DNA of 64,000 nt from an uncultured Eubacteriales bacterium (GTDB lineage: Bacteria; Bacillota; Clostridia; TANB77; CAG-508): positions 34,064 to 98,063 of the forward strand of contig CAOKHL010000001.1 in assembly GCA_948468315.1 (NCBI GenBank). Reading direction: 5' to 3'. Positions within the stretch are counted from its first letter, which is position 1. Every line of letters starts with the position of its first letter. The position numbers and the translations under genes are program-made. Under the pieces are notes generated by a model. It was not told the DNA's origin. It searched no databases and worked only from the letters and a program-made list of their open reading frames with translations. This document shows, piece by piece, positions 642 to 47,236 of this stretch.

Positions 642-801
642 AAATTGCCTCCATAATATATATTATGTGACTATTATACAAAATTATAAGAGAAAATGCA
701 AGAAAATAATTTTTTATTTTAAAAAGTAAAAAATACTTGAAAAATAATTACAAATATGGTAGCATAAAATTATGAAAATAAATAATAACAAGGAGGAAAA
801 A

Positions 802-2283
802 ATGTTAAGAAACGTGAAAGAAAAAGGTAGGAAAAAACAAGAGAAAGGTATAACATTAATAGCATTAATAGTAACAATAATTGTGTTATTAATATTATCA
901 GGGATAAGCATAGCAATGCTAACTGGTGATAATGGTATTTTAAATAAGGCAGCAGAGGCAAAAGTGCAGACTGAAATTGCAACATTAATAGAAAGAGTAA
1001 GACTTGACATATTTGAAAAACAAATGATAGGTAGCGGAGAAATATCAAATTTAGATTTGCAGAAAATATTAGATACATATTTTTTAGGGGTACCATCTGA
1101 GTTACCAGAAACTGCAACAGAATTAGAAGCCATAGAATTAATTTCAAGAGATGGTGGATATAAGATAAAAATTGGAGAGATTTATAAGGGAAGTGTAAGT
1201 TCTGGTTCTGGAAGTGAAGAAGAATTACCAGAATTACCAACAGGAGAAGGAACAATACCATATTTACCAAGTAGTGATTTTACACCAGTTGAAGGAACAA
1301 ATTTACAAAATGGATTAGTAATAGAAGATAAGGCAAAGAATCAATATGTATGGATAGAAGTACCAAGAACAACAACAGTATATCCAAATGCAGGGATAGG
1401 AATAACAAGTTTTACAGAAGCTGAATATACACAGATTGAAGATGACTTACATAATTATGCAAGTGAATATAGAACAAACAAAAATAGTGGATATATATAC
1501 ACTGATCAATATTTTGCAGATACAGAAGAAGGATGGTTCTCAGGAGAAGCTCAATATAATACAGCAAAACAAAATATGTTAAAAAGTGTATACAATAATG
1601 GTGGATTTTGGATAGGTAGATACGAGGCAGGAATAGAAACAAATAGAACAGAAAAAGGAACAGCAACAGAAGCGCCATTATCACGAGAAAATCTATATCC
1701 ATATACATATGTAACAAGAACACAAGCAAAAGTATTAGCAGAAAAAGTCAATTCAGGTAGTTATACAAGTAGTTTAATGTTTGGGACTCAATGGGATTTA
1801 GTATTAAAATATATAGAAGTAAAATCTGTAGAACAAGGAGTAGAATTAGCTACAATACAATCAGAAATAAAAAATGGTGGTAGTTGGGGAAACTATTATG
1901 ATGTATCATTTACATTAGATAGAGGAAAATATTGTAAATATGATGGAACTACAACATGGGCATTAACTGGAATATGGAATGCATATACTGAAAATACAAC
2001 TGGTCTAGTTGAAAATAAAGAAAAGAAATCGACAGATATAAATTCAGATAAAGTATTATTAACAACGGGAGCGTCAGATAGAAACAGAAGGCAAAATATT
2101 TATGATTTATCAGGAAATGTAACAGAGTGGACTTTGGAGAGGTGTAGTCAAGAGACAACGCCTTGTACAAGTCAAGGTGGACGTTATTTAGATAGTGGGG
2201 AAGCAAATTCAGTAGCATATCCAGTTATGGCTAATTTGACTAGAGCAAATGATAATTATGGATTTAGAGTTTCAATTTATTAA
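802..2283 (+). CDS. Type IV pilin-like protein with C-terminal FGE-sulfatase/C-type-lectin-fold domain
   Basis: Prepilin-like N-terminus (KGITLIALIVTIIVLLIL). Motifs NQYVWIEVP, GGFWIGRYEAG, NIYDLSGNVTEWT and GFRVSIY. AGGAGG RBS before ATG 802. Confidence 0.8.
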   Translation: MLRNVKEKGRKKQEKGITLIALIVTIIVLLILSGISIAMLTGDNGILNKAAEAKVQTEIATLIERVRLDIFEKQMIGSGEISNLDLQKILDTYFLGVPSELPETATELEAIELISRDGGYKIKIGEIYKGSVSSGSGSEEELPELPTGEGTIPYLPSSDFTPVEGTNLQNGLVIEDKAKNQYVWIEVPRTTTVYPNAGIGITSFTEAEYTQIEDDLHNYASEYRTNKNSGYIYTDQYFADTEEGWFSGEAQYNTAKQNMLKSVYNNGGFWIGRYEAGIETNRTEKGTATEAPLSRENLYPYTYVTRTQAKVLAEKVNSGSYTSSLMFGTQWDLVLKYIEVKSVEQGVELATIQSEIKNGGSWGNYYDVSFTLDRGKYCKYDGTTTWALTGIWNAYTENTTGLVENKEKKSTDINSDKVLLTTGASDRNRRQNIYDLSGNVTEWTLERCSQETTPCTSQGGRYLDSGEANSVAYPVMANLTRANDNYGFRVSIY

Positions 2284-5734: not shown

Positions 5735-5762
5735 GACAGAAGGAGGACAGAAGGGACAGGTC

Positions 5763-5816
5763 TTTTTGTATTGGGGACAGGTCCTTTCGCCAAAGGACCT
5801 GTCCCCAATATAAAAA
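5763..5816. repeat. REP-like perfect palindrome (gtattggggacaggtccttt-cgcc-aaaggacctgtccccaata), copy 1
   Basis: GC-rich 20-bp stem. A near-identical copy lies at 47193-47236, and partial ggacag repeats lie just upstream at 5734-5762. Confidence 0.8.
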
Positions 5817-9097: not shown

Positions 9098-9289
9098 ATG
9101 CCAGAAAATAATGTAAATGCACAAAATGACCGTTGTTGTTGTCAAAATAATAATAATGGTGGATTTTTAAGTGGATTATTTGGTGGAAATGGTGGTTGTT
9201 GTGGAAATGATAGCGAAATATTATTCTTCATAATTATATTTTTACTTTTATTCACAAATTTCGGATGCTGTGGTTGCTGTAGAGGATAA
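9098..9289 (+). CDS. Small Cys/Gly-rich membrane protein, probably spore-associated
   Basis: Strong AGGAGG RBS; CCC/GGCCG motifs and a hydrophobic ILFFIIIFLLLF segment; terminator hairpin at about 9296-9332. Confidence 0.65.
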   Translation: MPENNVNAQNDRCCCQNNNNGGFLSGLFGGNGGCCGNDSEILFFIIIFLLLFTNFGCCGCCRG

Positions 9290-9386
9290 CATATAAATTT
9301 TCCATTGGGAGGTAGTTCTCAATGGAAAATTTTTTGCTATAAATATGCTGCCTAATAAAAATTGTATGATATAATTAGATAAAAAT

Positions 9387-9415
9387 TGTAACGAATTTAG
9401 TTTTAGATTGTCATA
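9387..9415 (+). promoter_or_regulatory. Putative autoregulated ECF sigma promoter
   Basis: TGTAAC-N17-GTCATA directly upstream of the ECF sigma gene. Confidence 0.45.
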
Positions 9416-9433
9416 TATATAGAGGAGAAAAAT

Positions 9434-9934
9434 ATGACGAATATAGATATGGAAAAAATATATAATGAATATTTTAAAGTAGTATATAAATATTTAATTT
9501 GTTTAACATACAATCAAGAAATAGCAGAAGATTTAACGCAAGAGACATTTTGTAAAGCAATAAAGAATATAAGAAATTTTCAGGAAAATTGCAAAATATC
9601 TGTATGGTTGTGTCAAATTGCTAAAAATTTATGGCTGAACGAATTAAAGAAGAATAAGAAAATATTAGTAACTAATATAGAGTCAATTGAATTAATAGGA
9701 GAAGAAAATATTGAAGAAGATTTTTTGAATAGAGAGGATTTAAAAGGCGTATATAAAAGAATTTCTTTATTGGACGAGCCGATGAAAAATATAATTTATT
9801 TGAAACTGATAGGAAATCTAACATTTAAAGAAATAGGAGAGATTATGGGAAGAAATGAAGTATGGGCAAGAGTAAATTTTTATAGAGCTAAACAAAAATT
9901 AAAGGAGGTAGAAGAAAATGGAAAGAGACTGTAA
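9434..9934 (+). CDS. ECF RNA polymerase sigma factor
   Basis: AEDLTQETF and WLCQIAKN region-2 motifs; C-terminal HTH (FKEIGEIMGRNEVWARVNFYRAKQKL). Confidence 0.92.
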   Translation: MTNIDMEKIYNEYFKVVYKYLICLTYNQEIAEDLTQETFCKAIKNIRNFQENCKISVWLCQIAKNLWLNELKKNKKILVTNIESIELIGEENIEEDFLNREDLKGVYKRISLLDEPMKNIIYLKLIGNLTFKEIGEIMGRNEVWARVNFYRAKQKLKEVEENGKRL

Positions 9935-10793
9935 AATAGTTCAAGATTTATTACCAAATTACCTTGAAAAAACAACAAGTAAAGAAACAAATCAATACAT
10001 AGAAGAACATATAAAACAATGTCCAAAATGTTCTAAAATTTGTAATGCGATGAAAGAAGAATTAAATATAAGCTGTTCACTTGATACTGAAAAGGAAGTG
10101 AATTATATGAAGAAATTTAATGGAAAAATGAAAAGGCTAGAATTATGGAAAAAGATAGCTATGGTAATGATTTCAATATTGATTATTTTATTAGGAATGG
10201 TTTTATACAGATATTCAATTATAACTAAAATATATAAACTTCATTCAAAAATAAGTGAAATAACTAATGTTTATTATCAAGCAGAATATGAAGACAAAGT
10301 GATAGAGTTTTGGAGAAAAGATAGTATAATAAAACAAGTAAATAAATTAAAAAATAAGGAAGATACGATGACGTTTTGGAGGGATATAAGCACAGAGGAA
10401 GGATATTTGATATCTAACACTTCAAAAATATATGCAGAAACACCTAAAGAAGTACCTAGTCAAAACTTACCATGGGGATTTGCAGGTGATTGGGATACGT
10501 TTGAAAAAAGAATTAAAATAGCAATAAATCCTACTATTACTATAACTATTAAACAATATGATAATAAAGATTGCTATTATTTAAGATTAAATGGAAGTGA
10601 TTTTTTCAATAATACAGAAGAAATATATGAAAAAGATACAGGGCTATTATTGTTTGAAAGTGGCCATACTCAATATAGTAGTTGGGGAGAAGATATTAAT
10701 TGTAAAGTTAAATATGAATATAAAATTAATGTGGTTTTAGATAAAGATGTTGAAAGGCCTAATCTAAGTGAGTATGAATTAAGGGATAATTAG
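9918..10793 (+). CDS. Anti-sigma factor with zf-HC2 domain and one transmembrane helix
   Basis: CKIVQDLLPNY...HIKQCPKC (HxxxCxxC); overlaps the sigma gene. Confidence 0.88.
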   Translation: MERDCKIVQDLLPNYLEKTTSKETNQYIEEHIKQCPKCSKICNAMKEELNISCSLDTEKEVNYMKKFNGKMKRLELWKKIAMVMISILIILLGMVLYRYSIITKIYKLHSKISEITNVYYQAEYEDKVIEFWRKDSIIKQVNKLKNKEDTMTFWRDISTEEGYLISNTSKIYAETPKEVPSQNLPWGFAGDWDTFEKRIKIAINPTITITIKQYDNKDCYYLRLNGSDFFNNTEEIYEKDTGLLLFESGHTQYSSWGEDINCKVKYEYKINVVLDKDVERPNLSEYELRDN

Positions 10794-11092
10794 ATTTAAT
10801 ATTAAAATTTAAATATTTAGAAATGATTATGAATTTAGTGCTAAAAATTAGGTAAAAAAATGATAAAATGTTTTTGGCTTGTTGTTAAGTTACTTACTTA
10901 ATGATAAAAATTACAAAATAATTATAGCAATAAAGTCTAGAAAATGCAACAAAAATGTTAAAAAATTTTTGTTGCATTTTTTTACTTTTTATATAAATAG
11001 GAATTAGCTATAAGAATTGATTTTAAGCTGAAATATTACATTTTATTTTTATCATTAAGTAAGTAACTTGATGAACAGAAAGGATGTAAGAG

Positions 11093-12751
11093 ATGAGGAG
11101 AAAAACAAATGAAAATAGAGGGATAACATTAATAGCACTAGTTGTAACAATAATTATAGTAGTATTATTAGCAGGAATAACAATAAGTATGTTAATAGGG
11201 AAAAATGGAATACTAAATAGAGCAGCAGAGGCAAAGGAAAAAACAGGGAAGGCAGGAGATATAGAGTATTTGCAAATAGAAGTAAATGGAATATTAACGA
11301 AATATTATATGGATGGAGCTAAAAATATAGAGGAAAATGAATACATATTAATAGAATTAGGAAAAAAAGAGGAAATAACAACAAATGTAGGAAAAGGAAC
11401 TGTAAAATATAAAGGAAAAGAATATGAAATAAGCGAAATAAAAGGAGAAACAAAAGAGAAGACAGAAATAAAAGCCAATAAATTGGAGGCAATAACAATA
11501 TCTAATGTTGCAAAGGGAAGTGAAGAAGAAGAATTATTAAAAAGTGACCAAGTAAGAATGATAATAAAAGAACAAGGAGAAAAAGAAAGCATAGCTGTAA
11601 TACCAACAGGATTTTACTATGTAACAGGAACACCAAGTACAGGATTAGTAATATCAGATAAAGCAGAAGATGATGATAAAAATACAAAAAAAGGAAATCA
11701 ATTTGTGTGGATACCATGTAATGGAAAAAGTGGAGTAACATACGAAAAAACAGATGATAATGCAGAAGGAAATCATGGATTAGCTTCGTATTGGAAAGAA
11801 GATGGATATAATGGAAAACAGCATTTTTATAATACAATCCCATCAGGATATACAAATGCAGGACAAGAAATAATAGACTGGGAAGATAATGGGGGAAGTT
11901 ATGAAAGCGTAAAAAAATATGGAGGATTTTATGTAGGAAGATATGAAGCAGGAGTGCCAGAAACAGCAGAGTTTTATGCAAGTAAAGATGGGGACAAATA
12001 TGAAACAAATGGCAAGAAAAATGCAGAAGAAGTAAAAGAGTTAAGTCCAGTGAGTAAAAAGAATAATCAAGCATGGAATTATATATCACAAGAAAATGCA
12101 AAAATACTATCAGAAAATATGTATAAAGAAAGTGTATCAGTAAAAAGTAGTTTAATAGATAGTTACGCATGGGATACAATAGTAAGATGGGTGGCAAAAG
12201 ATAGCCAATATAGTGGAATAGGATTAGATAGTACAAATTACGGAAATTATTATAATAATACTGGAATAACAGAAAATACATTATATGCAATGCATTTATA
12301 TAGAAGTGTAAAATCAGCAGGACAAAATAATAGTGCATACACTGCAACATGGACAGCAGCAACAAAATATAGAAAAGGAAATATAACAAGTGGACATATA
12401 CCAAATATTTTAGAAACAGATAGAAATAAATATGAATGGGAAGAAAGTGAATATAGCGGAGGAACTGAATATTATAATTATACAGTATATAAAGAATTAG
12501 CAACAGGAGCAAGTGAAAAAAACAAAGTAAAAAATATATATGATATGGCAGGAAATATGTGGGAGTGGACAACAGAGACAGGAAAACATACAACTGCAAG
12601 TGGAACCACTGCTACAACTTATGCTGTGCTTCGTGGTGGTGGCTTCAACAACGCTGGTTCTGCTAACCCTGTGTCTTTTCGCAATGGGAACTATACTACT
12701 AGAGGGTACTTCTTCACCATTGGCTTTCGTGCCGTGCTTTACATAGCGTAG
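11093..12751 (+). CDS. Type IV pilin-like protein with C-terminal FGE/CLec-fold domain; probable DGR target gene
   Basis: RGITLIALVVTIIIVVLL N-terminus; GNQFVWIP, YGGFYVGRYEAG, NIYDMAGNMWEWT and RGG...GFRAVLY motifs; the last ~150 nt have a VR-like composition. Confidence 0.85.
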   Translation: MRRKTNENRGITLIALVVTIIIVVLLAGITISMLIGKNGILNRAAEAKEKTGKAGDIEYLQIEVNGILTKYYMDGAKNIEENEYILIELGKKEEITTNVGKGTVKYKGKEYEISEIKGETKEKTEIKANKLEAITISNVAKGSEEEELLKSDQVRMIIKEQGEKESIAVIPTGFYYVTGTPSTGLVISDKAEDDDKNTKKGNQFVWIPCNGKSGVTYEKTDDNAEGNHGLASYWKEDGYNGKQHFYNTIPSGYTNAGQEIIDWEDNGGSYESVKKYGGFYVGRYEAGVPETAEFYASKDGDKYETNGKKNAEEVKELSPVSKKNNQAWNYISQENAKILSENMYKESVSVKSSLIDSYAWDTIVRWVAKDSQYSGIGLDSTNYGNYYNNTGITENTLYAMHLYRSVKSAGQNNSAYTATWTAATKYRKGNITSGHIPNILETDRNKYEWEESEYSGGTEYYNYTVYKELATGASEKNKVKNIYDMAGNMWEWTTETGKHTTASGTTATTYAVLRGGGFNNAGSANPVSFRNGNYTTRGYFFTIGFRAVLYIA

Positions 12752-12755
12752 TGCT
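12605..12755 (+). other. Putative DGR variable region (VR) and IMH
   Basis: Abrupt switch from A-ending codons to GGT/GGC/CGT/CGC/GCT/GTG and AAC/NNC/NNT codons across the ligand-binding C-terminus. Confidence 0.75.
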
Positions 12756-12827
12756 AAAAAATTTTATTGCATCAATGATATTTTTATAGTACAATAGGTA
12801 ATATAAGAATGGAGGATTTAAGCAATT

Positions 12828-13631
12828 ATGAATAAGCAAGAATTATTAAAAGACTATAAAAATCAAGAGGACAAGCTACTTTTAGCTAGAGTATTAGATA
12901 AAATAGAATTTTCAAAAGGAAAAAATAAAATAGAAGATACAGATTTTTTGAATTTAGCAGAGCAGGATTTAGTAGATAAATTTCTAAAAAAAATGAAATA
13001 TCAAAATTATTACTTTTTTGGTGGTGCAGGAGAAGCGGAAAGAAAGATATTAATATTATATCCAGAGAAATTAACAGAAGAAATGGCAAGAAAAAATCAC
13101 TCAAAAATGATTAGTGTAATAAAGATAAAACTTCCAATAGAATTAGATGATGAATATGACCATAGAAGATATTTAGGAGCTATAATGAAACTCGGAATAG
13201 AAAGAGAAAAAGTTGGAGACATATCAGTAAAATCGAGAGGTGCAGAAATTATAGTAAAAAATGAAGTAGAAAAGTTTCTAATGCAGAATCTAGGTTCACT
13301 TACTAGATTTTCTTCAGCAGAAATAGAAGTTAAAAATATAGATGATTTACAAGAAATTGAAGCTCAAAAAGTTGAAATAACAGAAATTGTAGCTTCTTTA
13401 AGATTAGATAATATTGTAGCGAGTTTAGCGAGAACTTCTAGAAGTAAGGCAACACAAATGCTTGAACAGGAGAGAGTATTTTTGAATTTTAAAAATGAAA
13501 CTAAGTCTTCAAAACAAGTGAATGTGGGAGATGTAATTACTATAAGAGGTAAGGGGAGATTTGTATTTAAAGAGATTTCAGGAAATACTAGAAAGGGAAG
13601 ATTTGTTATAAAAATTGATAAATTTATTTAA
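12828..13631 (+). CDS. YlmH/Sll1252-family S4 RNA-binding protein
   Basis: TDFLN, GGAGEAER, HRRYLGAIMKLG, SLRLDNIVA and GDVITIRGKGR motifs. Confidence 0.88.
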   Translation: MNKQELLKDYKNQEDKLLLARVLDKIEFSKGKNKIEDTDFLNLAEQDLVDKFLKKMKYQNYYFFGGAGEAERKILILYPEKLTEEMARKNHSKMISVIKIKLPIELDDEYDHRRYLGAIMKLGIEREKVGDISVKSRGAEIIVKNEVEKFLMQNLGSLTRFSSAEIEVKNIDDLQEIEAQKVEITEIVASLRLDNIVASLARTSRSKATQMLEQERVFLNFKNETKSSKQVNVGDVITIRGKGRFVFKEISGNTRKGRFVIKIDKFI

Positions 13632-13790
13632 TCGAAAAAAGCAAAATGTTTATTAATTAAGCATATTTGCTTTTTTTATAAGCATAACAAAAAAACGAAA
13701 AAACTTTCGCAAAAACCCTTGACAAAAAAATAAAAAGCTGTATAATAATAACGAACATAAATTTGAAAAACGTTTTTTTGGAGGAATACT

Positions 13791-15425: not shown

Positions 15426-15582
15426 TTAGATTTATTTAATAATAATTCAATATATTTATCATGAATTTGTAGTAGACTTAACTATTAGAGTACACAAATT
15501 AACATAAAAAGCTTGCAATATTCCCAAAAAAGTTATATTATATATCTAACAAAAATTGAAATAATTATAAAGGGTGATAAAA

Positions 15583-17527
15583 ATGCTAGAAAAAGTAAAC
15601 AGTACAGAAGATTTGAAGAAATTAACCATAAAAGAAAAAGAAATTCTTGCAGAAGACATAAGAAAATATATAATAGAAGTAGTATCAAAAAATGGAGGAC
15701 ATTTAGCTTCAAATTTAGGTGTAGTTGAACTTACACTAGCATTAGAAAGTGTTTTTGATGTAAACAAAGATAAAATAGTATGGGATGTAGGTCATCAAAC
15801 CTATGTACATAAGATTTTAAATGGAAGAAAAGAAGAGTTAAAGAGTTTAAGAAAACTAAAGGGAATTGCAGGTTTTCCAAAAACAAAAGAATCAGAAACA
15901 GATTGTTTTAATACTGGTCATAGTAGTACATCAATTTCGGCAGCAATGGGAATGGCAAAAGCAAGAGACATCAAGAAAGAAAATCATTCTGTAATAGCAG
16001 TAATTGGAGATGGTGCACTAACAGGTGGAATGGCTTTAGAAGCATTAAATCATATAGGAAGTTCAAAAACAAATGTAATAGTAGTACTAAATGATAATGA
16101 AATGAGTATATCAAAAAATATTGGTGGAATAAATATGCTTTTAAGTAAATTAAGAGCAAGAAGACATTATACAATTTCAAATCAATCTGGAAGAAAAGTT
16201 TTAGATAAAATTCCAATTATAGGACCAGTTTTAATTAAAATAATTAGAAGAATAAAAAAAGGAATAAAACAGTTAATTATACCTAAAATGTTTTTTGAAG
16301 ATATTGGGTTTAAATATTTAGGACCAATAGATGGTCATAATATAGAAGATATGGAATTAATATTAAAAAGAGCAAAAGAACTAAATGAGCCAGTGTTAAT
16401 ACATGTACTTACTAAAAAGGGAAAAGGATATGAACCTGCTGAACTTATGCCAGATAAATTTCATGCAACATCAGCATTTGATATAGAAACAGGAAATCCA
16501 AAAAAGGTTAAAGAAAAAGACTATTCTAAAGCTTTTGGAGAGAAACTAGTAAGATTAGCGAAAAAAAATAACAATATAGTAGCAATTACAGCAGCTATGA
16601 AGGATGGTACAGGACTAACAGAATTTGCCAAAATCTATCCAGATAGATTTTTTGATGTAGGAATAGCTGAACAACATGCACTAACATTTGCAGCAGGATT
16701 AGCTAAAGAAGGAATGATACCATTCGTTCCAATATATTCATCATTTTATCAAAGAGCATATGATCAAGTAATTCACGATATTTGTATGCAAAATTTGCCT
16801 GTTATAATGTGTGCAGATAGAGCTGGTATAGTTGGGGCAGACCGGAGAGACACATCAAGGAATATTAGATTTATCATTTTTTAAAGTAGTTCCAAATCTT
16901 ACAGTAATGTCTCCAAAAGATTTCAAAGAATTAGAAGATATGATGGAATTTGCTGTTAAACTTAAATCTCCTGTTATCATAAGATATCCAAGAGGAGGAG
17001 AAGCAAAAGAAAAATTTATAACACATTCATATATTCAACATAAAAAATGTGATATTTTAACATTAGGAACAGATGTAACTATTGTAGCAATAGGAAATCA
17101 AGTTAGTAAAGCAATGAATATTTACAGAAAATTAAAAGAATGTAATATAAATGCAGAAGTAATAAATGCTAGATTTTTAAAACCATTTGACAAATATACA
17201 GTCTTAAAATCTATTTCAAAAACTAAATTTGTTATAACTATTGAAGACAATAGTTTAATTGGAGGACTTGGAACAGAAGTAAAAGAGATTGTTGCAGAAA
17301 AACGAATTCAAGATATAATAATAAGAAATTTTGGATATCCAGATGTTTTTGTAGAACATGGAGCTCCACAAGAATTAGAACAAATATATAAAATGGATGA
17401 AAAATCAATATTTAATTATATAAAAAATACGATAAAACATAAAAAAATTACTAAAAATTATGGAGAAGATGAAAAAAAGAAAAAGTACAATTACTATCAA
17501 GTAAAAGAAAGAAGAAAAAATGCATAA
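15583..17527 (+). CDS. dxs: 1-deoxy-D-xylulose-5-phosphate synthase; +1 frameshift at in-frame CGG (16843-16845); 647 aa
   Basis: GGHLASNLG, WDVGHQ, GDGALTGG and DVGIAEQH motifs. DRAGIVGAD-CGG followed by the +1 frame GETHQG restores the conserved GADGETHQG and joins ORFs 15574..16884 and 16832..17527. Confidence 0.93.
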
Positions 17528-47192: not shown

Positions 47193-47236
47193 GTATTGGG
47201 GACAGGTCTTTTCGCGAAAAGACCTGTCCCCAATAC
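47193..47236. repeat. REP-like palindrome, copy 2 (also usable as a bidirectional terminator)
   Basis: gtattggggacaggtctttt-cgcg-aaaagacctgtccccaatac between convergent yunB and deoD. Confidence 0.8.

Follow-up and report, generated by a model that had tools for sequence, protein, structure and literature searches.

An adenine-depleted tail in a pilin-like gene of an uncultured gut Clostridia bacterium is probably the orphaned variable region of a lost diversity-generating retroelement

The DNA analysed here, called the window, is a stretch of 64,000 nucleotides (nt) on contig C1 (GenBank CAOKHL010000001.1) of assembly GCA_948468315.1, here G000, from an uncultured Eubacteriales bacterium of the genus CAG-508; positions given without a contig are positions in the window. 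Its gene at 11093..12751 encodes a 552-residue protein with a pilin-like N-terminus and a C-terminal domain of the fold shared by formylglycine-generating enzymes (FGE) and C-type lectins (CLec), and the last codons of this gene have the composition of a variable region (VR), the segment that a diversity-generating retroelement (DGR) rewrites from a template repeat (TR) by means of a reverse transcriptase (RT). A sequence-only reading of the window had taken this tail for the VR of a pilus-displayed adhesin, set among housekeeping genes with no RT or TR nearby and still being diversified in trans by a remote DGR. The features of the gene and of the sequence directly past it are as follows.

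11093..12751, plus strand: gene for a pilin-like FGE/CLec protein of 552 amino acids, with homology to the target proteins of DGRs in its genus
11114..11182, plus strand: pilin-like N-terminal hydrophobic segment, residues 8-30 (G-ITLIALVV...), with Ala and not Glu at position +5
12605..12751, plus strand: A-depleted, GC-rich tail, a VR footprint by codon statistics, which can be aligned over 12621-12742 with the VR and the TR of the related genome G076
12742..12760, plus strand: post-VR sequence, made up of the first 8-9 bases of a 16-nt sequence found in the genus and then A/T
12757..12785, no strand assigned: AT-rich imperfect inverted repeat after the stop codon, with 13-nt arms (12757-12769 and 12773-12785) and a 3-nt loop

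A switch from A-ending to A-free codons over the last ~48 codons had been described from the letters alone, and codon counts split at 12605, the boundary given in that description, agree with it: the share of codons ending in A falls from 305/504 in the body to 3/48 in the tail (Fisher p = 3.7e-14), and the individual tail codons that had been quoted match the sequence as written. Overall GC rises from 30% in the gene body to 49% in the last 48 codons, and the A fraction is 0.489 in the body vs 0.188 in the tail. GGA encodes 42/48 glycines of the body and none of the 7 in the tail, and arginine is encoded by AGA/AGG at 10/10 body positions and by CGT/CGC three times and AGA once in the tail. 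As the shift falls in synonymous codons, amino-acid composition is not its cause. In 100-nt windows, GC is 0.24-0.37 across 11100-12599, 0.47-0.49 across 12550-12749 and 0.22 past the stop, and the AT skew of +0.2/+0.6 in the gene body reverses to -0.22/-0.28 in the tail, with background values again after the stop. The break lies ~150 nt upstream of the stop, and the body is native in composition right up to it. Genome-wide GC in 120-nt windows of G000 has a mean of 0.266 (standard deviation 0.054), and only 59 merged stretches contain a 120-nt window reaching GC 0.44, the tail being one of them. Third-position A in the VR is 0.07, vs 0.5-0.6 in gene bodies. AAC/AAT codons stand at residues 519, 520, 525, 531 and 533, giving the tail the combination expected of a DGR target, adenine-poor scaffold codons with AAC or AAT at variable sites.

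The protein that carries this tail matches Pfam FGE-sulfatase (PF03781) with E 3.9e-7 over residues 481-548. An AlphaFold model built with 64 homologues as input has a mean predicted local distance difference test score (pLDDT) of 86.5, reaching 95-97 over residues 500-552, and in VIA-align its closest fold is TaqVP, the variable protein of the Thermus aquaticus DGR (PDB 5VF4; Z 17.4, root-mean-square deviation 4.0, 235 aligned, residues 118-551), followed by PvdO, the Treponema protein TvpA (2Y3C, Z 13.8), FGEs at ~Z 12 and Mtd at Z 11.3-11.5. Mtd and TaqVP are also the top Foldseek matches. The domain of the model that matches DGR proteins starts at about residue 118-170 and ends at residue 552; the VR lies in a C-terminal CLec/FGE-type fold. 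Structure prediction of this domain was one of the checks proposed with the sequence-only reading, and together with PF03781 and the alignment with G076 it agrees with a DGR-type VR on an FGE/CLec fold. TaqVP is the best structural match at 14% identity and is without a pilin-like N-terminus; the shared fold is no proof of shared function. Catalytic FGE, as in human, has a cysteine pair near the C-terminus, and the translated window protein has no Cys in residues 500-552; a Cys at position 530 is present in 5/7 strain variants through the change R530C. The family is very large, 7474 of 8000 scored proteins being homologues at E <= 1e-5, and heavily paralogous in the genus.

At position +5, where the type IV pilin consensus has Glu, the protein has Ala, and PF07963 (N_methyl) matches residues 8-30 with E 0.13 and 12.3 bits, under the cut-off of 21.2; the G076 homologue, with E 0.0015 and 18.5 bits, is likewise under it. 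The G-ITLIALVV stretch is conserved across the 64 homologues, residues I11 to L16 being invariant or almost so, and the model has a helix at residues 12-35 with low pLDDT. Genes of pilus machinery are present in G000 (PilB-, PilT- and PilC-like; T2SSE twice and T2SSF on C18). The only Peptidase_A24 (prepilin peptidase) locus in G000, C5:59681-60020 on the minus strand, spans at least two reading frames, as a frameshifted gene or an assembly error would, which bears on the processing of many pilin-like proteins. The N-terminus of the proposed adhesin thus looks pilin-like, and because the sole prepilin-peptidase locus is split across frames its display on a pilus is plausible only; the protein may sit on a pilus and bind a ligand through its VR face.

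The genus, represented by 338 species genomes of which 200 were sampled first and then all 337 others, contains DGRs with their parts in place. On contig C15 of G076 the order is target gene (N_methyl plus FGE), bAvd (E 9.7e-16), RT (RVT_1, E 6.3e-17), TR and RT-14 RNA. A 121-nt repeat of the target tail, 87% identical to the VR, lies downstream, and this copy is the TR because 13/16 mismatches fall on its adenines. The structured region past it (L034 8991-9133) is the Rfam RT-14 RNA (RF02921, 97.1 bits), and its place directly past the TR ties the RT-14 motif to the DGRs of the genus. When window 12621-12742 is aligned with the VR and TR of G076, the mean column identity is 78% (BLAST identity 73-74%), and the alignment reaches as far as the last codons, the GGxTTTCGTGxCGTGCT end included; the tail is therefore homologous to a VR with a demonstrable TR partner. 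On another contig of G076 there is a remote VR candidate with 17/21 mismatches at TR adenines. Homologues of the DGR RT (G076 RT query, E <= 1e-20) occur in 127/200 genomes, with internal stops in 26 of the 150 RT matches listed; to judge from sequence, DGR cassettes are common in the genus and often decaying. Two tandem units of TR plus RT-14-like sequence, ~300 nt apart, were also seen in L026 (G053:C1), L035 (G102:C68) and L053 (G290:C98).

Diversification of the family is evident elsewhere in the genus. A 51%-identical homologue belongs to a 90%-identity cluster of 379 in which 13/13 aligned members carry different VRs, with near-total variability restricted to the VR columns, which provides a positive control (13 members), and VR-confined variability is likewise seen in the closest clade, at 61% identity. 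With G076 and these 13 VRs, the protein family is seen to be DGR-diversified outside the window.

In G000 itself the writing apparatus was not found, with all in-genome negatives limited by an assembly of 1.48 Mb in 35 contigs that is 93% complete. There is no second copy of the VR in it and no DGR RT: the G076 RT query had no match at E <= 1e-20, and tblastn returned only an intron RT (2.6e-9). The only RVT_1 match is a group II intron RT/maturase at C24:17512-18810 (L009 1249..2547), intact at 432 amino acids (TIGR04416, E 1.7e-101) and the sole reverse transcriptase of the assembly. A profile of ten genus TR flanks found nothing in G000 (best E 7.8), RF02921 had no match there, and the only bAvd signal is a 62-residue truncated fragment on C12 covering positions 7-49 of 107 of the profile. 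The described lack of an RT or TR near the gene is thus confirmed, and the proposed search for a TR copy differing only at adenines came out negative in this genome. No cognate TR was found in the genus either, the best DNA match to the VR being 73-74% in 200 and then in 337 genomes, and because the best relative is this distant the adenine-only VR/TR test is inapplicable. Pattern scans with two A-free stretches of the VR gave 0 hits in viral contigs and 0 in metagenome contigs, collections that may omit the source genome and its near relatives; six loci that the scan returned from genome contigs were all non-cognate. Loss, rather than non-assembly, would explain the missing DGR parts.

Variation of the VR among strains was assessed in the 90% cluster of the window protein, which holds 7 protein sequences on 22 contigs, and in Logan contigs of mouse-gut sequencing runs. 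Among the 7 variants, 19 columns vary in residues 1-509 and one in residues 510-552, so that the VR (1/43 columns vs 19/509 outside) is not hypervariable. The single change, R530C, affects a codon that is CGC and hence adenine-free in the window, and only two VR alleles occur on the 22 contigs. The four runs, each from a different study, all give the same VR at every position covered. The strain in run X11 has 26 differences in 10800-11939, 15 in 13193-13700 and 0 in 11918-13192; the contigs of X4 that cross the region are 11917-12594 and 12573-12728; and both junctions of the tail are spanned without a difference by independent contigs from X10 (12537-12829) and X11 (11918-13700). The adenine-specific strain variation that ongoing mutagenesis had led the earlier description to expect is thus seen neither in the 7 variants on 22 contigs nor in the four runs, all at the level of contigs.

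The sequence 3' of the VR is shortened. A 16-nt sequence (GTAGCACTGACCACTG-like) comes after seven VRs of the genus (L023, L024, L031, L035, L036, L037 and L057), and the window has the last VR codons and only 8-9 bases of it before an A/T run. The GC hairpin of G076 (GACCA/TGGTC) is absent 3' of the window VR, and the remote VR candidate of G076 likewise lacks the 16-nt sequence and the hairpin bases. The hairpin that had been noted after the stop does exist, with arms 85% complementary, a DNA folding free energy of -5.7 kcal/mol (z -1.98) and 7/200 shuffles as stable; it is weak and AT-rich, unlike the GC-stemmed hairpin of G076, and the terminator scan did not call it as a terminator. Within the same spacer, 35 nt (12762-12796) are also matched in 4/4 runs by far deeper contigs with unrelated flanks, bin depth there being 21-162 vs 4-16 nearby, and this stretch is common to a more abundant organism.

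Related tails occur elsewhere in G000. A giant pilin-like paralogue at C12:37981-46401 (L038 7982..16402, minus strand), at least 2806 residues long and cut by the contig end, has repeated domains and three FGE-type domains; domains 1 and 2 have an A fraction of 0.41-0.43 and native codons, and the last domain alone is A-poor. Directly past this A-poor tail lies the 62-residue truncated avd, followed by unrelated genes and no RT. A truncated avd without an RT beside a VR implies that at least one cassette was deleted in this lineage and its VR left behind, and the C12 locus is clearly the scar of a DGR deletion. The cassette lost there is itself unlikely to have written the window VR, because no DNA match at E <= 0.01 links the two VRs. 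Graded A-depletion is found in the tails of paralogues on C5, C9, C10 and C15 and in that of window gene 772..2283, with third-position A from 0.16 to 0.38, and no TR partner for these tails was found in G000. The gene at 772..2283 (plus strand) encodes a second pilin-like FGE paralogue of 503 amino acids, and its tail (A 0.34, third-position A 0.38) looks as if it were an older VR undergoing erosion. A GC-rich palindromic element of ~39 nt (…GGGACAGGTCTTTTCGCGAAAAGACCTG-like) was also observed; besides lying past the paralogues on C5 and C10, it follows numerous genes across many contigs, at window ~5744-5805 (C1:39807-39868), 47199-47230 (C1:81262-81293) and ~40 other sites in G000, and looks like a repetitive extragenic palindromic (REP) or terminator repeat.

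Upstream, the target gene is preceded by genes for an extracytoplasmic function (ECF)-type sigma factor and an anti-sigma factor.

9434..9934, plus strand: ECF-type sigma factor (Pfam Sigma70_r2, E 2.1e-13)
9918..10793, plus strand: zf-HC2 anti-sigma factor (Pfam, E 8.1e-8)
10939-10982: terminator-like hairpin, from the terminator scan

Together with the target gene, these two genes form a lineage-specific block of ~3.5 kb (~9294-12823). In the nearest sampled species, G014 and G053, whose YlmH proteins are 89% and 85% identical, the block is absent and the U32 peptidase gene, a Cys-rich open reading frame (ORF) and ylmH are adjacent. The housekeeping neighbours described for the gene are real, and it stands among them because the block sits at this site; the gene itself belongs to the block and its sigma/anti-sigma pair. 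The VR end was considered as the right edge of the block and set aside, as homology with both species does not begin again until ylmH starts (~12824), and the 76-nt spacer past the stop is uninformative. The small Cys/Gly/Asn-rich ORF at 9098..9289 (plus strand; 63 amino acids) has no Pfam match and is conserved in G014 and G053, where it lies between the genes for the U32 peptidase and YlmH. Further downstream, dxs appears split into overlapping ORFs at 15574..16884 and 16832..17527 (plus strand; 436 and 231 amino acids), the frame changing near a conserved GxTHQG stretch through a frameshift or a sequencing error.

Taken together, we consider it likely that the tail is an orphan, frozen VR left after the loss of its DGR. 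The protein would be a surface protein whose N-terminal segment, similar to that of a type IV pilin, is joined through a linker to a large CLec domain of the FGE type, and past mutagenic retrohoming would have written its VR, with the TR RNA reverse-transcribed with errors at adenines and the product copied over the VR. Adenine mutagenesis would account for scaffold codons that avoid A (CGT, GGT, GCT, GTG and CTT) and for the several sites that keep AAC or AAT. The writing cassette (Avd, RT, TR and RT-14 RNA) would since have been lost in this lineage, and the VR, ~43 C-terminal residues, would now be ordinary fixed coding sequence with a compositional footprint. Several observations weigh against an orphaned, frozen VR. 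The footprint is very fresh, which would place the last rewriting recently relative to the time that erosion takes in an AT-rich genome; ~7% of the genome is missing, and a cassette could sit there or on an unbinned mobile element; and the remote VR candidate of G076 indicates that trans-targeting occurs in the genus. The Logan contigs hide minority variants, and strains from laboratory mice may be close to clonal, so that the lack of variation counts for less. Depth over the VR bin is 1.95 in X4 and 2.15 in X5 vs ~6, with contigs breaking there, as heterogeneity could produce; this dip was set aside as evidence both ways, since the runs have 2-6x depth and contigs break throughout.

Some of these points also speak for a live remote target, in which an unassembled or unbinned DGR still rewrites the VR in trans, rarely, or in which one allele is strongly selected in mice. 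The missing ~7% of the genome, the low third-position A, the lower depth and contig breaks over the VR in 2/4 runs, the remote VR candidates of G076 and, in the available text of a survey, the non-adjacent targets of 45/372 DGRs (PMC5758913) are all compatible with it. Set against them are the RT, TR, RT-14 RNA and intact avd that were not found in 1.48 Mb; the cognate TR missing from 337 genus genomes and three contig collections; the two VR alleles on 22 contigs with their non-adenine difference, where the homologue of another species has 13/13 different VRs; and the shortened 16-nt sequence without the G076 hairpin. We therefore regard a live remote target as unlikely, and the remote, trans-targeted and ongoing diversification proposed by the sequence-only reading is not upheld, with no DGR RT or TR in the assembly and a VR that is fixed among strains. 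The narrower idea that the VR is rarely rewritten by a DGR outside the binned chromosome, such as one carried by a prophage or a plasmid in the community, is in our estimate a long shot. If it were true, the DGR would be acting across replicons on a pilus adhesin that is encoded on the chromosome and controlled by an ECF sigma/anti-sigma switch, and the A-poor tails of the several paralogues would form a permanent stock of remote targets and not be fossils.

An origin without any DGR, by recombination or transfer of the tail from a higher-GC donor or through amino-acid constraints of the FGE fold, is very improbable. Gly, Arg and Phe are abundant in the C-terminal motif of FGE, and the gene does lie within a lineage-specific inserted block, but the shift is synonymous (GGA 42/48 to 0/7, AGA to CGT/CGC), and the fold does not force it, because the first two FGE domains of the C12 paralogue retain native A-rich codons. 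A higher-GC donor is also hard to reconcile with a tail that at the DNA level is closest to TRs and VRs from its own low-GC genus, and with a gene body that stays native right up to the VR. Hardly any credence attaches to a chimera in which the tail was misjoined in the metagenome bin: the assembly is fragmented (35 contigs), but independent runs and studies (X10, X11 and X4) give contigs with 0 differences, those of X10 and X11 spanning both junctions, and 22 contigs carry this protein at full length.

An orphaned VR, the preferred reading, has precedent, and the tail is most likely an orphan VR of a kind already described. In the available text on Treponema denticola, isolates without an RT or TR keep their target genes, which the authors regard as likely leftovers, and repeated gain and loss of DGRs is argued for (PMC4891356). 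The window gene resembles those leftovers, as far as that text describes them, in its FGE-type CLec domain, its C-terminal VR with an adenine-mutagenesis pattern and the finding of neither RT nor TR, and it shares the fold of TvpA. It differs in that its VR has no close relative TR (best 73-74%), its N-terminus is pilin-like where theirs is a lipoprotein signal, and its host is a low-GC gut Clostridia with several paralogues bearing graded footprints. Compared with the G076 target, it has the same N_methyl-like plus FGE architecture and a homologous VR; unlike that target, it has no avd, RT, TR or RT-14 RNA downstream, ylmH lying only 76 nt past the stop, and no full 16-nt post-VR sequence with GC hairpin.

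Remote and FGE-type DGR targets are well catalogued in the available parts of two surveys (PMC5758913; PMC8144416), the former giving seven remote targets for a Treponema DGR. Like these, the window gene is a VR-bearing FGE/CLec gene far from any RT; their defining trait as given there, an adenine-only TR in the same genome, was looked for in G000 and not found. DGR-diversified adhesins are described on the type V pili of Bacteroides (bioRxiv 10.1101/2024.11.15.621889), and a VR on a 'GspG-type pilin' domain is recorded as a rare case (PMC11661182), both according to the portions available. The likeness to the Bacteroides adhesins, so far as those portions go, is one of idea, a DGR-varied binding domain on a pilus subunit of a gut bacterium; the window protein, from a different phylum, has a type IV-like N-terminus in a genome with PilB/PilT/PilC genes, and no current diversification is seen in it.

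In total, these results suggest that raw sequence is enough to recognise a DGR footprint when the genome is AT-rich, and that such a footprint outlives the retroelement which wrote it, so that a VR-like signature is no proof of ongoing diversification. The putative binding face of the 552-residue protein is fixed in the mouse-gut strains sampled. With RT homologues in 127/200 genomes, many of them broken, and a large FGE family in which some members are hypervariable, the genus is a good natural system for the gain, loss and fixation of DGR-diversified gut adhesins.

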